DNA of 64,000 bases from Pecten maximus (GCF_902652985.1 NC_047025.1:34472001-34536000), one strand, 5' to 3'; positions 1 to 10,020 are shown, counted from the first letter of the stretch. Notes: a model not told the origin generated them from the letters alone. Program-made: numbers and translations.

Positions 1-3000
1 CGTTTGATAGGACAGCTCTACGTGAAGACACGGCCAGGGACGCACTACGTTTGATGACGCCTATCTCACCATCGCATGGCCCCTTCCCATGACGCGAACC
101 GAAAAAATGCTTTTCCGTTCCAAATCCAAAATCATCTTGGCTAGATGACAAATCCATGAAGTTGTATTTGCATTTGTATTGAGAAGGTGCCCCATCAGAG
201 TAGTGAATTTCTTTTTCAATTTCCAGACCACTTTGCATCAGAAATTCATTTGCTTTTGTTACTGAATGTTGTACAAAGTGGTAATCATGCTTATGATCTT
301 CTGAAATAAACACCAAGGAATGATGCATTGACTCATTGCAGTCTTGGACTGGGCATCGATGATAAGCGACAATAGGATGAATAGTCACCTGTTCATATGT
401 CCAGTGTGCGCTTTGTGCCTCGTCTTGGTGACGACAGCAATAATTTTCTGCAAAATCCAGGCACATGAGCATCCATTTGTTAGGAATATTTGTTTTCAAA
501 TATTCAAACTCCTTTGTCTGCCAAAATGCATTGAAAAGATGTTTTGAAAAGGGAACAAGTTGTTTTTTCAACTCATCCAGACATTCCTCAACCAATCCAG
601 TCTTGCATTTCAAGGCCATGTACTTTTTTGAAACAGGATTCCCATTGACAACTGTTGTTTTTTCGTCCTGTTCCCACTTCTGCCACGATATTGTCTGATT
701 GTCCGAAAAGTCTTGAAATTGCCTGGCAAGAATATCCCCAAACTTGTCAATGCCACATTTTTCACACTCTCTGTCGATGCAATGTTTTTGATAATATTCA
801 CCCTCTTTTGGGCATAGAGTATTACGGGACATCTCATACCGGTCACTTGCAACAACAGGTATCTTCTTCTGGACACAAAAACACTTCAAGCTTTTCACTT
901 TAAAATCAATATTTATACAATACTCGCATAAACACTGTAAATATTTGTTTTTTGTCATTGGGAGTACATTATCTGGTTTCAGACTGGCAAATTTGCTGTA
1001 GGAAATCTGCTGGTCTGGGTTTTCCTCAGTGAATTTGGTGTATGTTGTCTTCAGAGAACATTCCAGTGCTTTCCTTACCGACAAATCCTTCTTGACCGAT
1101 CTCTGATTTGGTAGCTCTCTTGAGATATACATTTTGCCATAAAAGTTTTCCACTGTGTTGACAACTTCAATTGGTAATGTGTCTTTTCGCTCTTTTCTCC
1201 TCACTTCAAGATCTTTATTTTTTTCATACTGTGTCGCCAATTTTCTGCTTATTTGAAATTGTGTTTTGATTCTTTTGTTTACTCTCCCTTTCGCAAGCAG
1301 TGCACTGTGTAGAATGCGTCGCAGCCTGTTGTCCTTGGAGTTTCTTCTACATTTCAATTCTTCAATTTTGTCCCTAATGCCCATCTGTGTTGTTTCAAGG
1401 TAGTCTAACCGTTTCTTTGCACCTGGGGATGTAATGCACTTTTTCATAAGGGCAGCTTTTTTATTTGGTGTAGTTTTTGCGATGATACTGGATACAACAT
1501 CCGCAAACTTATTTGCATCTGTGGGGAGTATTCGCAGTGACCTAGAAATAGCCTTTCGCTTAGCAGCTGCAGATGGGAATCCACCAGATGGAACGACAGA
1601 TGTATTTGAACTTGAACTTCGTGAAGATGACGATGCGTTGGAAACTGCTTTTTTTCCTTGCTTCTTTAAGGCATATAACTCTCTTCGTCTCTCATTTACC
1701 CTCCTCCTTTTCTGTGCACTCATGTTACTTCTTTGATCTCTCTTGACTTTTTTCCAAGTCTCTCTCTGTTTTTCTGTAGCATTTCTTGTGTATGCCCGTT
1801 TATTTGTAATATATATATTGAAGCCTGGTTCTGACTTTTTTTTCTGTCTGTACCTCTGATTGCGAATTCTTGCCTTTTCATTATATTTTTGTTTTTGTTC
1901 TTCTGTCATTGATGCACGAAAAGCCTGTATACGAAGACTTTCATATGCCCTGTAGCTCTTATATACAGCAACATCTTTTTTCATTCTCTCGCGAAAATCT
2001 TTTTGGTATTGTGCATTTGTTTTCTTTTTTTGTCGAACGATTGGTGGAACCTAACAAAGACATAAACAAAGGGTTATTTACACTTTGTAGGTAATATTTC
2101 AGTCAAAGTTAACATCAAACTTGATCAAGGTATTCACACACTTAATAACCTTTGTGTGAAGTTTGATCAAAATCTTTTCAGAAATGAAGATGTATAGTGC
2201 TGACAACTTGGACCATGTATGTAAATAAGGTCTACGGTAAGAATGCTATAAACCCACGGCAGACTGTCTTTACTCAAAGGGATAATAATACCATAAATAC
2301 CAAATTGATTTACAATAATTTGCTATTATTGCAAAGTTAAAGTTTTTTCTGTTTAAAAGTGATAAATTGTATGAACTAATTTTTGGTGTCCTCTGATATG
2401 AACATAAAACATTGAAAATTAAAATACATAAAACCAACAAATAATTTTCAATGTCATAATTCAAACCCTTATAATTATTGCCTATAATAACTTCAAAAAT
2501 TTTATAATCAAGAAAACATTTCATTCTGAGGTGATAAAATGGAATGGTCTTACGTTCAAAGAAAGACACTGGATTCTGAATTAATTTCAGTGTCCAATGA
2601 TATGAACATAATACATCAAGCAATGTTCTTCAAAATCACATATTAAATATTGTAATGACATAATTTAAACACTAATATAACCTTTTAATTGTACAATTGA
2701 ATAAGTCATGGAATCATTTCAATTTTAGGTTGTAAAACAATATGCCCTTATGTTCAAAGAAAGACACTGGAAAACAATAATTCATTTTGGTGTCCAATGA
2801 TATGAACAAAATGTAAATGAAATAATCTGTCAAACTCTCATATTAAACTTGAATGTCATAATTCTGTAAGAATAACATTAATAAGAGCTATATGATTTAT
2901 AAAACAAATACCTTTTTATTTAAATTTGAAAGAAGAAAATTGTATGTTTTTATGTTCAAAGTAGGACACTTCAAGTTAAATATCTTGTAGTGTCCATCAT

Positions 3001-3802
3001 ACGTACATAATTTGTTTTCTGACATTGATGATAAGTTCAAAATAAATATACACAAAAGAAGTTAAAATGAAATTCATCTCTGTATTTAGAAGTCAACTGG
3101 TAATTTTCAATCAAGTAAACATTATGGAATTACTACTATTTCAAACCATCTTATGTTCGGATAAAAGACACCTAACACCGGGAAATTATTGTGTCTCCAA
3201 TACGTACGTAAACTCGCATTGACATGTAACACTAATACAACTATTTCAGGCATCAATACCATTTCTGTCGATTGTACAAATATAATTTTGAAATTTGAAA
3301 ATAAATCTCCATGCAGGCATTATATGAATAATGAATTGTTCACTTTCGCTTTTGTTCACTTATAAGGACACTCCCGTTGGCTACTGTTATCGTGTCTCCG
3401 ATACGAACATAATATGGATGGAATCCAAGTGATCGACAAGTTTCACAAACGATATTTTCGCTGACTGAATTGATTAATGAAAAATATCCAATATAACACA
3501 TCTAAATCGGTCTGAAACATTTGCAGTACTCGAGAACGTATATGGTAGACTTTTGTTCAATCTATGGACACGAACATCCTTTGGAAACAGCTTGTCAATA
3601 AACACCCACAACATCGTATGTATGCTTATCAGAACCAAAAAAGTGCACTAAAATAACTTGTTGGGTCCTCATTTCGGATGCTAGAAATCAAAAGTTTGGA
3701 TATAAATCATACATTCATTTTTAATCGGGTATACACACGAAAACTTACCTCTTCCTTACGTTCGTCCCGTCGCGGCCGGAGACGGGACACCAACGCATCC
3801 AT
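1..3802 (-). CDS. Sola2-type DDD transposase, two exons (3749-3802 + 1-2050), runs off the left edge of the window
   Basis: Exon 1 encodes MDALVSRLRPRRDERKEE and ends at a gtaag donor. It joins in phase 0 to a ttag acceptor at 2050 (VPPIVRQKKKTNAQYQKDF...). The frame is open without stops for 683 codons to position 1. Motifs: CLCEYC and CIDRECEKCG (Cys clusters), CLDFAENY..QDEAQSAHW, YSDGAPSQYK, FFGSRHGKGPCDG, matching Sola2-group transposases as I recall them. Confidence 0.85.
2340..3600. repeat. Diverged ~200-bp periodic array of inverted motif pairs (TAYGTTC..GACAC / GTGTC..GAACATA) in the transposase intron
   Basis: GTGTC half-sites at 2386, 2590, 2790, 2990, 3191, 3392. TWYGTTC half-sites at 2551, 2749, 2951, 3152, 3351, 3552. 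Spacers are only weakly similar. Confidence 0.8.
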
Positions 3803-5576
3803 GGTCCGTTTACAATGCCCGAGTGATCAGCGATGAAGAACGCTGCAGTGTCAAAGCAGTCACGTGATGTTGTTTTCATTGGAGATGTAAAGCTAGCAAA
3901 TATTGTTTCGTAAAGCAGCGTTAGCACCGCATCTTATGTTCGTATCGCTGAGGACACGAAGTGTGTACGAGATATAGATGACTTCAAAAAATATGTTTAC
4001 GTAACAGTTTTGCACTAAATCATTTCAAAATATGTTATGTCAGATGATTTCAACATTACGTGCACAAAATATGCTACTATATCCACGGCATGGTAAGAGA
4101 ACTGGTAACTTGTAGTAATGGTTTAAAAAGGACACGGAGAGATGTGAACGTAAGATCATCTTCAAATGATTATTCTTCATTGTACACTCGTGTTTGTGAT
4201 TTTTTTTTACAGTGTATGTGTTTATACATGACTGCTCTGGCAAAATGACACATTTAAACTGTACTGGGAGATTAAATAAATGTAAAAAAAACCAGTATCA
4301 TATCACCTGTTGGAAATGTCACACTTTTGCACTTGAAAAGTGCACATTTTTGCTAGGTTTTATTTGTCTACAAAATAACCTATAACATGCAGACCAATCA
4401 TATATCATGATTTATTTGCAAGAAGTATGCCACATACAACAAAACAAAACTGATACTTCAAATATGTTTATTTTATTAGATATTTACATTTTATATGCAA
4501 TATGCAAATTTGTCCCAGTACTGAAGATGGACTTATATATGAAGTTATCCAAATATGTTTCCAAGATTTTCCCATAATTTTAATTCCGAATTTCCAAACT
4601 AATGCAATTTATAAGTAACGTACCAGTTGATCTTGTGTTGCAAGTTTCAGAATATCTTCTGGACTTCCTTTTTTGTCCTTCAATAGTTTGTCCAAAATAT
4701 CCATGCATTGTTCTGCTATGCTGGGTCCGAAAGGGAGAGTGTCTTTTTGCTTCGCAGTTTCGTGAATGCAAATGTCCCCTTTGCATTGCTTGCATTTTCT
4801 GGTCTTTTTACCAAATCGAGTTGCCATTTTCACAACAGAATATCGAAACTTTGAAAAATCTCAATATCTTCTTGAATAGAAATTGTGAATGTTATGAAAC
4901 GTTTTCGTCTATTGATGACGTCATAGTAGATATGACGTCACAATACAATACCCCAATGCTGTATACTCCGCGAAATGACGTGACGTGTCGAGGTCAGTAC
5001 TTTGAGGCGCAATAGACTAAAAGTAAAGACAGGAATAGATGTTTGAATGCTGAATCTGACTAATATACGGGTACTTTAGGTAAAGAAATCCTCCTAAGAG
5101 GTAAGCTTGTTAGTAACTGGGTTGTTTGGTGTATACGTCATCGCAACACGATGGTCACCGATATAAAACCTGGACATGGTGACAGGGTTAACTTATAATT
5201 TATAGATATCGCTGGCTACCCAAATGTTACTAATCAGCTAGAGAGGTTTGGAAACAATGCCCATACCCTTGCTCGTTTGGGCGGGCGCTCAATAATACAG
5301 CCAAACAAAAAAGGAAGTCATGTGTGGCATGGGAAACAAAATCTAAAAAGTAGAGAGAGAAACAAAGGCCTGAAATGTTAAAATAGATGCAGCAAATTCA
5401 TATTTGTAATTTAGGTTACTCTAAGTTGAGACCACATAAAGTAAAATATGCATGGATTGCTATATCCGTCGTCTGTATCATATTATGATATCGTTCATCA
5501 ATTGTTAACCTGCAGAGATGAAATTATTATAAAGTAATTTATCTCATACTTTGCCACAGTGAATCAATGTGATTAG

Positions 5577-6823
5577 AATTCAGTAGACTTTGGCGGATTA
5601 CATCCGCTACGAAACTCTATCTTTCTGGCGAGGTGGCAGTATTAAACAGACTTTGGTGGATTACATCCACTACGAAACTCTATCTTACTGGCGAGGCGGC
5701 AGTATTCAGTAGACTTTGGTGGATTACATCCACTACGAAACTCTATCTTACTGGCAAGGCGGCAGTATTCAGTAGACTTTGGCGGATTACATCTACTACG
5801 AAACTCTATCTTACTGGCGAGGTGGCAGTATTCAGTAGACTTTGGTGGATTACATGTACATGTACTTCGAAACTCAATCTTACTGGCAAGGTGGCAGTAT
5901 TCAGTAGACTTTGGTGGATTACATCTACTACGAAACTCAATCTTACTGGCGAGGCGGCAGTTTTCAGTAGACTTTGGTGGATTACATGTACATGTACTTC
6001 GAAACTCTATCTTACTGGCGAGGTGGTAGTATTCAGTAGACTTTGGCGGATTACATCTACTACGAAACTCTATCTTACTGGCGAGGCGGCAGTATTCAGT
6101 AGACTTTGGTGGATTACATCCACTTCGAAACTCAATCTCACTGGCGAGGTGGCAGTATTCAGTAGACTTTGACGGATTACATGTACATGTACTTCGAAAC
6201 TCAATCTCACCGGCGAGGTGGCATTATTCAGTAGACTTTGGTGGATTACATGTACATGTACTTCGAAACTCAATCTCACCGGCGAGGTGGCATTATTCAG
6301 TAGACTTTGGCGGATTACATCCACTTCGAAACTCTATCTTACTGGCGAGGCGGCAGTATTCAGTAGACTTTGGTGGATTACATCCACTTCGAAACTCAAT
6401 CTCACTGGCGAGGTGGCAGTATTCAGTAGACTTTGACGGATTACATGTACATGTACTTCGAAACTCAATCTCACCGGCGAGGTGGCATTATTCAGTAGAC
6501 TTTGGTGGATTACATGTACATGTACTTCGAAACTCAATCTCACCGGCGAGGTGGCATTATTCAGTAGACTTTGACGGATTACATGTACATGTACTTCGAA
6601 ACTCAATCTCACTGGCGAGGTGGCAGTATTCAGTAGACTTTGACGGATTACATGTACATGTACTTCGAAACTCAATCTCACCGGCGAGGTGGCATTATTC
6701 AGTAGACTTTGGTGGATTACATCCACTACGAAACTCCATCTTACTGGCGAGGTGGCAGTATTAAACAGACTTTGGTGGATTACATGTACTGCCAAACTCC
6801 ATCTTACTGGCGAGGTGGCAGTA
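5577..6823. repeat. Minisatellite with 63/69-bp units, ~19 copies
   Basis: Unit cagtagactttggtggattacatccactacgaaactctatcttactggcgaggtggcagtatt; the long variant carries an extra tgtaca. Confidence 0.95.
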
Positions 6824-7251: not shown

Positions 7252-8373
7252 AACAAGAGCTGTTGGAGAACAGCATAGCTCGTCTCACAAATGTTTGTCA
7301 ATAAATAATTAAAATATATTAATTGGAATGGTTTCGCAAATTGCATTAATAATATTTATATTGTTTACTTGATCAGATTGTTTTGTGAATTCATGCAATT
7401 TTCAATACCATACATTTATATATATATAAATTATTTATTGACAAACATTCGGGAGACAAGCTATGCTGTTGTTAATTGAATATATTAAATACAAATGTAA
7501 TTGCTTTTGGACATATTTCTTCATTTTTTTTGACAAAATATTATCCTAATGAGAGTTGTCTCCCTTGAAAAATGTGGACCCGTATAAATTGTCTATTGTG
7601 AGTATTTCCACATTGTTTTATTTTCAGTTTCACCCCAAGAAGGGATAATGTAACTCCATAGGGACTCTTTTACCAAATATCAGCACCCTAGTACAATCAT
7701 AAAGTGAAATGTTAATAGCTTTCAACATTTGCACAAAAATTTAAAAAATGTGTTTTTTCCCCAAAATAATCTTTCAGTTTAACTCTGGCAAGGGATAGTT
7801 TAATCCCCACAGGGAACCTAATACCATGTATTACTATGCCTTTCAACACTCACAACATAAGCTTAACACAAAGTCCAAAGATTTAAAAACAAAAAAAAAC
7901 CTTCTTTTTTTTTAAAGTTTTACTCCAGGAAGGGATTGTCTTACTCCATAGGGACTCTATTGCCAAATATCAGCACCCTAGTACAATTATAAAGTGATGT
8001 ATTAATACCTTTCAACACTTGCACCAAAAACTTAACGCATAATTATTCTAAGTCAAAAAATTTGAAAATTCTGGTTTTTTCCCAAATAAATCTTTCAGTT
8101 TTACTCTGGCAGGGGATAGTTTAACCCCAGAGGGACTCTATTGTCAATTATCAGCACCCTAGTACAATTATAAAGTGATGTATTAATACCTTTCAACACT
8201 TGCACCAAAAAGTTAATGCAGAAATATTCTAATTCCAAGGACCATATTACCATAAATTACTATGCCTTTCAACACTTGCACCAAAAATTTAACATTTGAA
8301 AAACCAACGCCGACACCGACGCCAGAGTGACGACATAAGCTCTCTCTCTTCTTCGAAGAGACGAGCTTAAAAA
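7252..8373 (+). mobile_element. Helentron-associated non-autonomous element (HINE/pearl-like)
   Basis: Starts aacaagag. Sub-terminal inverted repeat agctcgtctc (7277) / gagacgagct (8358). Internal diverged tandem repeats, 3' hairpin ctcttcttcgaagag, then an A-run. Confidence 0.7.
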
Positions 8374-10020
8374 CTAATTCTGAATTAAAACCCACTCAGC
8401 GAACTACAACTCTTGTTGATTGTAGTTTACCATTCAGAAATGTCGGAGATGCATTACTTCATATGCCTTATTTTCTTGCAGATACGCGTATGTGGTATGG
8501 CTTCCTCGGATATAAACGAGCTGCAATTATAATAAAACATTCACATGACACTGAAAAAAATAGCACTCCATCTCCAGTTAATTTTTCACCCTGAGTATAC
8601 TTTGTAGGTTCAGATCACCAATGATTCAAATTCAGTTGGCCAAAGCTTCAACATGTCCAAAAGTTGGCCAAGGTGGAATTGAAGGTATCTCAAAGTAAAA
8701 AGATTGTATGTCTCTTTGAAATTCCGAAGCTGTTAATTTGGCCAAACACTTTGTTCCTTTGTCATAGTATACTACATTTTCATTACAGACGTCTTGATTT
8801 TTAATTATGTATGTATAAAAGTTTTTAAGACAAGTATTTAAGACAGTATATTGGCAGCATACTGTATCAATGCGTTATTCAAATCATGTTTCAACTAACA
8901 ACTTGGCAAATACTTGTGTCACGCAGTTCCCCTCCATACTTTGCCATGCGGTTCTATCTAGACTTTTCCAACATGGTATGTGTATGCGCATATAAAATAC
9001 TTTACTCCGGGTGGAAACTGGGATTCAACCGGGAATATTGACAGATACGAGTGATTCAGCATAACGCCATTCTCTCCACAGTTAACACTCCGAGAGAGAT
9101 CGGAATTATACTAGAATTACCTCCCCTTGTTACTAGCCTACACAGGAATAACAAACAGCTATATTGTATATACTGGTATTCGCACAGACATTTATTACAA
9201 TGTATAGGTATATACAATGATTTCCGTCTCGACTGACACTGAAATGATAACATCTACATATATTGGCACATTTCCCATGCATAACACAATGAATACAATG
9301 AATAGATGACTGTTTTTATGTGTAGGATACCTTGTACTTATAAAACACACCCCAAACATAATAAGCTCTATCAGAAATGTGGGTGTGGCTTTTTGTTCTT
9401 TTCATTTTCAACATTGTACAATTAGGTAGTGGTGCAAACAAATTAAAACACACCCTTATTTAAGAGTCTGGCCATCATACGTCTAACCTGGTTGACAAAA
9501 CAAAGATAAACTAGATAATAGTGTATCATTGTTTATATTATAATTTACAATTACCATTTTAAAGTTTAATTGAAAAAAAAAAATTGTATTGATATTCAAA
9601 TTAACTCAAACTGATTTTTTCATGAAATTAAACCGTTCTATATACATATTTTCAAACATACATTTCAAAGCGATGTACACAAGTAACAAATTATGACAGA
9701 TACTTTGGTTCTTCCAGTAAAGCAGAACGTTACATATACATGAACCTCCTGTCATGATAAGTACAATAATATTGGGTATTACAGAATGTGACAGGCGAGT
9801 TTTCGTTTTTACTCTATTAAAGTCTCGGGTAATAAAATGATGTAACAGATTTAATGATACAGTTTTAAATGATCTTCAGGAGTAGAGCATAAATACATCA
9901 ATATATCCAGTTCAAGTCTCTATCTGTTAGCAACAAAACTGAAACTGTTCACAGAAATTAGCATTCTTCTAAAAAAAATATATATATATATATATAAAGA
10001 GTACTTCTAATGAGACTTCT

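Follow-up and report, generated by a model that had tools for sequence, protein, structure and literature searches.

A two-ended ladder of candidate transposase sites with a period near 200 bp in Sola2 transposons of Pecten maximus

Results

The transposon and its gene

We analyzed a 64,000-nucleotide stretch of Pecten maximus DNA (GCF_902652985.1 NC_047025.1:34472001-34536000; hereafter the window), which opens within a Sola2-type transposon whose transposase gene carries a regularly spaced array of short inverted motifs in its first intron. The element is 9111 bp long and is the copy on C11 of a family that we call F1; a second copy, on C15, is 99.8% identical across the entire element. Searching the same genome yielded six sister families (F2-F7), or seven families with F1, and their transposases are 30-47% identical to that of F1.

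The gene lies on the minus strand and consists of exon 1, intron 1, exon 2 and four further exons. All five introns are joined at GT..AG by contigs of runs X1 and X8, whose RNA status is guessed or unrecorded, and the other long frames in F1 are repeat-rich exons of the same gene or their antisense. Exon 2 encodes basic helices, a helical bundle, a small winged-helix-like part, Cys clusters and an RNase H core. The transposase motifs DF[AS]ENY, QDE.QS.HW, Q.T.HP, SDG...QYK and HGK.PCDG and the upstream C.C..H/C.N cluster are all present, as judged by eye against P0001 and the part of the Sola2 alignment in S10 of PMC3627910 that was available. Sequence searches of Pfam and the PDB with the transposase returned nothing useful. 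Its structural model (predicted local distance difference test, pLDDT, 89.7) has an RNase H/integrase fold, with Z of 9-10 and a root-mean-square deviation (rmsd) of 3-4 over ~150 residues.

By these motifs, its AT-rich 4-bp target duplication and its short terminal inverted repeats, the element is a Sola2 DNA transposon. ATAT flanks all three F1 copies that have both ends, those on C15 and C6 among them, and three of four F2 copies have target duplications (ATCT, AGAT and AATT), the fourth being mismatched. Termini begin with AAG in F1-F3, GAG in F4 and GGC in F5. Bao and colleagues reportedly gave the Sola2 terminus in 2009 as 5'-GRG. Published Sola2 terminal inverted repeats, in the part of the source available, are 12-21 bp long and begin with GAA, GAG or GTT (PMC3627910), so the 5'-GRG rule is not strict. 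A candidate ATG, read from the sequence, stands ~730 bp from the terminus in F1, F2, F3, F5 and F6.

An array of inverted pairs in intron 1

Intron 1 holds copies of a single bipartite motif, TWYGTWC-N7-9-GACAC, on opposite strands. GTGTC starts at positions 2386, 2590, 2790, 2990, 3191 and 3392 (spacings 204, 200, 200, 201 and 201), and mirror sites start at 2551, 2749, 2951, 3152 and 3351, with a sixth at 3552; the first-pass annotation of the window had described the positions, spacings and mirror motif correctly. Five inverted pairs result, each spanning 59-62 bp with an inner gap of 19-22 bp, and the motif-free gaps between pairs measure 138-144 bp. A loose bipartite pattern has 12 matches in the intron, compared to a mean of 0.009 and a maximum of 1 in 2000 dinucleotide shuffles, and 2 matches in the remaining ~59 kb of the window (4540-64000). 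Across the genome (918 Mb), 10 of the 14 matches to the inverted-pair pattern fall within the element's two copies, and a reversed control pattern has 8 matches. The pair pattern is confined to the element and is not enriched outside it. Neither Tandem Repeats Finder nor plain autocorrelation detected the array.

A ladder counted from both ends

The first-pass annotation had placed the array inside the intron. Its 12 intronic matches do lie there, but further sites occur within exon 1 (3757-3790) and at 3935-3957 and 4131-4152. The site at 3935, which had been taken for a half-site upstream of the ATG, is indeed upstream, but it is complete, and the ATG is at 3802. Counted from its 5' terminus, F1 has sites at 383, 600, 779 (exon 1), 983, 1124/1184, 1325/1383 and so on to 2129 bp; the opposite end of the element, where the annotation had proposed to look for sites, has them at 188, 371 and 519/570 bp from the 3' terminus. 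The intronic array makes up the inner, expanded portion of a ladder with two ends and is not confined to the intron (Table 1). Sites like the one in exon 1 of F1 are also found in exon 1 of F2 and F3. The ladder overlaps a CpG-rich stretch 300-1500 bp from the terminus and brackets the ATG.

Table 1. Features of the F1 element in the window, with distances counted from its 5' terminus.
Feature	Positions	Strand	Remarks
Exon 2, Sola2-type DDE transposase	1..2050	-	793-codon frame, continues past window start
Intron 1	2051..3748	-	1698 bp, GT..AG, holds the array
Innermost single site	2386..2406	-	2129 bp from 5' terminus
Inverted pair	2551..2610	both	younger, tandemly duplicated units
Inverted pair	2749..2810	both	younger, tandemly duplicated units
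Inverted pair	2951..3009	both	
Inverted pair	3152..3210	both	
Inverted pair	3351..3411	both	oldest class, spacers on both sides unalignable
Single bipartite site	3552..3571	+	983 bp from terminus; mirror partner near 3592 degenerate
Exon 1 of transposase gene	3749..3802	-	18 codons, ATG at 3802; matches start of P0001
Third ladder site, within exon 1 coding sequence	3757..3790	+	TACGTTC at 3757, GACAC at 3786, long spacer
Second ladder site, upstream of ATG	3935..3957	+	600 bp from terminus
First ladder site	4131..4152	-	383 bp from terminus; GACAC half flipped
5' terminal inverted repeat	4508..4534	-	~27 bp, imperfect, begins AAG; 5' end of element = 4534
Target-site duplication ATAT, 5' end	4535..4538		4 bp; other copy at 3' end, ~4.6 kb left of window start

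Spacers of fixed length and growth of the array

All six spacers are 135-141 bp long. Spacers 1-3 are mutually homologous in pairwise alignments against shuffles (z 3.7-6.2) and are duplicates; the remaining 12 of 15 pairs score like shuffles (z -2.2 to 1.1), so the description of the spacers as largely diverged holds for those pairs but not for the first three. The oldest spacers, which are at shuffle level, measure 136-138 bp. Among the three oldest units, identity between sites is 88% over the 12 motif bases, compared to 29% in the flanks; spacers as conserved as the motifs, which had been named as the mark of an ordinary old tandem repeat, are not what these units contain. Because spacers 1-3 are homologous and the older ones keep their length without being alignable, we conclude that the array grew at its inner end, through tandem duplication at least in part, the older units having kept only motif and length.

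In F2 the array likewise lies in a spliced first intron, and most F2 and F4 units are homologous tandem duplicates. F2 copies with target duplications have 8, 5 and 5 units, and across families and copies the number of intronic rungs varies from ~1 to 8 pairs. The F2 copy on C11 (L029, 7413-8595) contains a near-identical duplication of a three-unit, ~590-bp block, either recent array growth or an assembly effect. Elsewhere at this locus (9283-9678), RNA contigs leave out a 394-bp piece with non-canonical ends ahead of the F2 start codon.

Register and period in sister families

The 5' non-coding DNA of different families is linked by only 3 short blastn matches (25-45 bp), and yet their sites stand at nearly the same distances from the tips. 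A first site with its GACAC half flipped is found at 383-397 bp in 7/7 families, the next at 592-605 bp in 6/7 and one at 980-1012 bp in 6/7. At the 3' end, sites lie at 178-202 bp in six of the seven families and at 359-373 bp in six. When the 65 sites found with a universal pattern in 6 families were pooled, the best period was 193 bp, with a phase of 14 bp from the terminus, a result matched by 0/2000 uniform nulls and 14/2000 family-shifted nulls. One copy, F4_C2783, was left out of this phase test because of a nested insertion of ~920 bp, which shifted the F4 ladder; an F4 copy without it restores sites at 389/420, 596 and 997 bp. The inserted element (L035/L049, positions 83-1004) has short inverted ends, is absent from two other F4 copies and is presumably pogo-like.

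The motif also reaches the very ends of some elements. A full motif lies inside the F4 terminal repeat, 37 bp in at both ends, F4 has another site at 194 bp, and full motifs occur in the end repeats of F6 and F7. The motif-free gaps are 138-144 bp in F1, 146-156 bp in F2 and 148-160 bp in F4. The motif variants are family-specific: F1-F3 have TAYGTTC, F4 and F6 have GAYGTAAC, and F5 and F7 each have their own, with a GTAAC-like core common to several families. Since F1-F3 and F4 plus F6 are supported transposase clades, the variants appear to follow the transposase tree across these seven families.

Upstream of several more distant loci in the same genome (L037, L041-L044, L047, L048 and L061-L068) we detected no period; their ends were not found within the DNA examined, and they were left out of the counts. 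We looked for non-autonomous derivatives present in multiple copies and came upon single deletion copies only; a search with one degenerate end pattern gave no match. In F4 (L149, L035) and F6 (L038), GACG is kept within ~1000 bp of the 5' terminus and intronic sites mostly have GATG; CpG content in these families falls beyond 1500 bp from the terminus. This shift is likely gene-body methylation decay tolerated by whatever reads the motif.

Sola2 loci from other organisms

We also applied an unselected test to 80 Sola2-like metagenome loci, which formed 56 clusters, 47 with enough flank and 9 dropped for short flanks. A repeated 11-mer (in three or more clusters) was present in 30 of the 47, some of these positives being plain tandem repeats (L072, L077, L078), and the other 17 had no repeated word. 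Gaps of up to 600 bp between repeated 11-mers numbered 76, of which 62 measured 150-215 bp and 5 more 340-410 bp. In 16/16 loci that we examined closely, the motif lies outside the transposase frame. Canonical loci with ends found have the motif 13-16, 183-193 and 373-403 bp from one tip and at ~350-382 and 513-565 bp from the other, and place it directly inside the 12-bp terminal repeat. As in the scallop families, distant loci skip the first rungs at one end. Related elements thus keep both period and register, whereas a lack of the period in them had been named as what would refute the first-pass interpretation. One locus (L084, 129-4401) has the end with rungs at 13, 193, 381 and 403 bp upstream of its transposase, the reverse of the other loci.

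Because the motif is conserved, the unalignable spacers have a fixed length, and period and register are kept in relatives, our data support selection on both motif and period, as the first-pass annotation had proposed. A functionless, decayed tandem repeat whose motifs survived by chance or gene conversion would account for the homology of F1 units 1-3 and of most F2 and F4 units. It would not account for conserved motifs between non-homologous spacers of fixed length, for a register kept across families at 30% protein identity, or for a motif found at both ends and in the terminal repeat; this explanation is largely refuted, and we give it hardly any credence. The ladder is real, selected and element-specific, and what it does we infer.

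Discussion

The transposase as the probable reader

We think that the motifs are likely sites of the element's own transposase, lying in linkers between positioned nucleosomes, although we hold this combined view with only modest confidence and its two parts differ in strength. That the transposase binds the ladder motif is very probable. A cut-and-paste transposase must bind within its terminal repeat; the presence of the motif within the terminal repeat of F4, directly inside that of canonical loci and in the end repeats of F6 and F7, together with variants that seem to follow the transposase tree, points to the transposase as reader. This support for the earlier proposal of transposase sites is indirect. 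We also counted in its favor the N-terminal 140 residues of the model, predicted to form long basic helices ahead of the bundle and the winged-helix-like part.

Host transcription factors, for example of the bZIP type, might instead have had their sites gathered as an enhancer. bZIP proteins read TTAC/GTAA-like halves, a GTAAC-like core recurs in several families, and the F1 3'-end motif variant contains the palindrome TTACGTAA. However, the variants differ by family within one genome, following the transposase tree, and the pair pattern is not enriched outside the element, which makes a host factor very unlikely.

The putative DNA-binding part resembles nothing with confidence. With VIA-align, the best match to the N-terminal model had a Z of 5.7, and weak winged-helix matches fell at residues 285-367. 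The STPR (FMBP-1) structure 5d23_A aligned to residues 7-70 (Z 5.1, rmsd 4.1, 64 aligned), which is within the noise range of the tool; the STPR domain is marked by tandem 23-residue helices along the major groove, and a search of 48 proteins gave no match to the STPR family. An Atlas feature search on the transposase gave unnamed clusters only, with scores under 0.9.

A nucleosomal basis for the spacing

The gaps of 138-160 bp are close to the 147-bp nucleosome core (PMC5861402), and it is these lengths that make a nucleosomal basis for the spacing probable. Our literature search found no measured nucleosome repeat length for bivalves. Each gap would hold one nucleosome core, a 60-bp pair plus a 140-150-bp gap making up one repeat. 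Two DNA-binding modules of the transposase (or two subunits) may read the motif halves across their flexible spacer, and an inverted pair could bind two transposases. The rungs close to the terminus are universal, and their role would be to let the ends be recognized and paired on chromatin. The intronic units, whose number varies, would form an additional loading platform across the CpG-rich promoter region, exon 1 and intron 1, raising transposase occupancy at the 5' end and likely also tuning the element's transcription. Because the intronic array varies in length between transposed copies, it likely serves to load or regulate and not to form the core complex; this variation argues against the fixed role in transpososome assembly that had been suggested for the intronic units.

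A number of points weigh against our interpretation. No DNA-binding domain could be named in the transposase, Foldseek on the N-terminal model having given no match at E 0.001, and the inner part of the F1 terminal repeat is only a partial match to the ladder motif in its 3'-end variant. The per-family site patterns were adjusted by hand; for F6 and F7, the termini come from inverted repeats without a clear target duplication; and the 150-215-bp gaps of distant loci were counted without a shuffled control, with ~9 expected from a uniform spread by simple arithmetic. Duplicated units inherit their period and hence are not independent evidence, and the families share ancestry. One F1 derivative of 1263 bp, flanked by ATAT, has none of the 5' sites, although, being single, it may be an in-place deletion. 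As for nucleosomes, the spacers show no 10.5-bp AA/TT/TA periodicity (p 0.64), with dinucleotide power higher at 10 bp (0.47; the null, 0.30 +/- 0.07, is that for 10.5), and they are AT-rich (21-35% GC). Gaps in F3 range from 126 to 162 bp, F6 units are irregular (180-241 bp), and the period is unequal at the two ends of one element (~200 and 170-185 bp).

These last observations, from the missing 10.5-bp signal and AT-rich spacers to the irregular F6 units and unequal periods, would also suit transposase sites spaced by protein architecture or DNA looping, the 200 bp being the historical length of a duplicated unit. Bacterial transposon enhancers offer an analogy for looping. Sleeping Beauty, in the part of the account available, has inner and outer sites with host-assisted bending by HMGB1 (PMC7827188). 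We nevertheless regard such spacing as quite unlikely, because gaps cluster at 138-160 bp in three families and because the 5' end, in bivalve and distant loci, skips the ~190-bp site and starts at about twice the unit, a start that fits a quantised ruler.

Comparison with known systems

Nucleosomal linkers as transposase sites have a proposed precedent in piggyBac. In the available part of that work, the left-internal site LI178-235 is a footprinted transposase site 147 bp from the terminal site, modelled in a linker beside a nucleosome, so that the end motif is repeated ~180-200 bp inside the end (PMC5861402). Our loci likewise repeat the end motif about one nucleosome inside: at 13-16 and 183-193 bp in canonical loci, at 37 and 194 bp in F4 and at 188 bp at the F1 3' end. 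Whereas piggyBac has one footprinted internal site at one end, the Sola2 ladder, read from sequence, has 3-4 sites next to its 3' terminus and as many as ~20 on the 5' side, arranged as inverted pairs and running from the promoter across exon 1 into intron 1. The hAT element Hermes shares subterminal transposase sites, asymmetric ends and a 147-bp spacing for which a nucleosome folding the end was proposed; as far as the accessible text goes, its sites are 4-bp repeats scattered in a few hundred bases and read by BED domains, without a long regular ladder (bioRxiv 10.1101/2022.09.16.508221). The inverted repeat/direct repeat (IR/DR) ends of Sleeping Beauty, ~220 bp long, resemble ours in having inner and outer sites, a bipartite DNA-binding domain and ordered assembly, but the partial account describes two sites per end in long inverted repeats (PMC7827188), unlike F1, whose terminal repeat is ~27 bp and whose sites lie in unalignable DNA.

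The closest evolutionary likeness is to the VANC target arrays of Arabidopsis VANDAL elements, which are, in the parts of PMC5735166 consulted, family-specific motifs in introns and upstream DNA, multiplied in tandem and variable between copies. This likeness suggests that our ladder might be an anti-silencing or self-regulating array, through which an element protein, probably the transposase, opens or represses its promoter, end pairing not being its purpose. The motifs are in non-coding DNA, gained by tandem repeats and variable in copy number, as for VANC (PMC5735166, in part); the three F2 copies differ in unit number as listed above; the ladder brackets the ATG and overlaps the CpG-rich stretch; and homologs carry chromatin-type C-terminal extras (OTU in P0023 and P0066, a weak Tudor/chromo match in P0014). 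On the other hand, the motif occupies the tips and keeps constant distances from either end, in canonical Sola2 loci as well, and the X1/X8 contigs show one spliced gene, with no second, VANC-like gene seen. As far as that source goes, VANC motifs are dense and in the same orientation, not inverted pairs at nucleosome length; they have no fixed register to the ends, and a separate anti-silencing protein reads them (PMC5735166). We consider a purely regulatory array unlikely. By analogy, the ladder may work like the piggyBac internal site and evolve like VANC targets.

A bolder extension of the transposase-and-linker proposal, which we put forward only tentatively and think may well be wrong, is that Sola2 transposons recognize their ends in the form of chromatin, the transposase coating the linker sites and setting a nucleosome row from each tip. 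The 5' row of the bivalve clade would comprise at least 10 nucleosomes and cover the element's promoter and first intron, so that one protein would both assemble the ends and set the chromatin of its own gene.

It is an open question by what means the transposases of eukaryotes locate their ends on nucleosomal DNA and bring them together, and for piggyBac and Hermes a nucleosome role was proposed, in the available parts of those reports, from one spacing each. The Sola2 ladder makes the idea directly testable, because the elements are young, transcribed and intact, and because they combine many rungs in a conserved register with naturally occurring differences in length and with motifs specific to each family. 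For this Sola2 clade, which had no Pfam or PDB sequence match in our searches, the ladder is also the first source of a candidate binding motif and of end requirements, and it shows one way in which a 200-bp tandem array arises in a transposon. Published Sola2 elements share with F1 the transposase motifs, short terminal repeats and AT-rich 4-bp target duplication; the AAG termini of F1-F3, the long intron-rich gene and the internal ladder set it apart, the ladder going unmentioned in the part of PMC3627910 available. Our literature search found no account of an internal Sola2 ladder, although the founding Sola paper and Repbase Reports were outside its reach and a prior description is possible. 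The contribution of this locus lies in its long extension of inverted pairs, in gaps of 138-160 bp, in an age gradient and in a register common to seven co-resident families.

Further features of the element and its surroundings

Many Sola2 transposases (P0007, P0010, P0023, P0066 and others) have an OTU-like protease C-terminus; a GDGNC-type motif is present in 18 of the 162 proteins examined, with Pfam OTU matches in P0023 and P0066. A possible 58-bp cassette exon of F1 (L022, ~1146-1203), together with the last exon (600-784, minus strand), lies in the 3' part of the element, outside the window. Followed by the last exon in another frame, it would encode a C-terminal, Tudor/SH3-like domain resembling the one in P0014; the X1/X8 contigs and P0001 skip it and end in a different frame. 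Within intron 1, a short piece at 2152-2189 matches a host repeat of high copy number, as well as RNA contigs that extend into other DNA. Two features lie just outside the transposon (window 5578-6823 and 7269-7470): a minisatellite with 19 copies of a 63/69-bp unit and an 82-bp inverted-repeat element.

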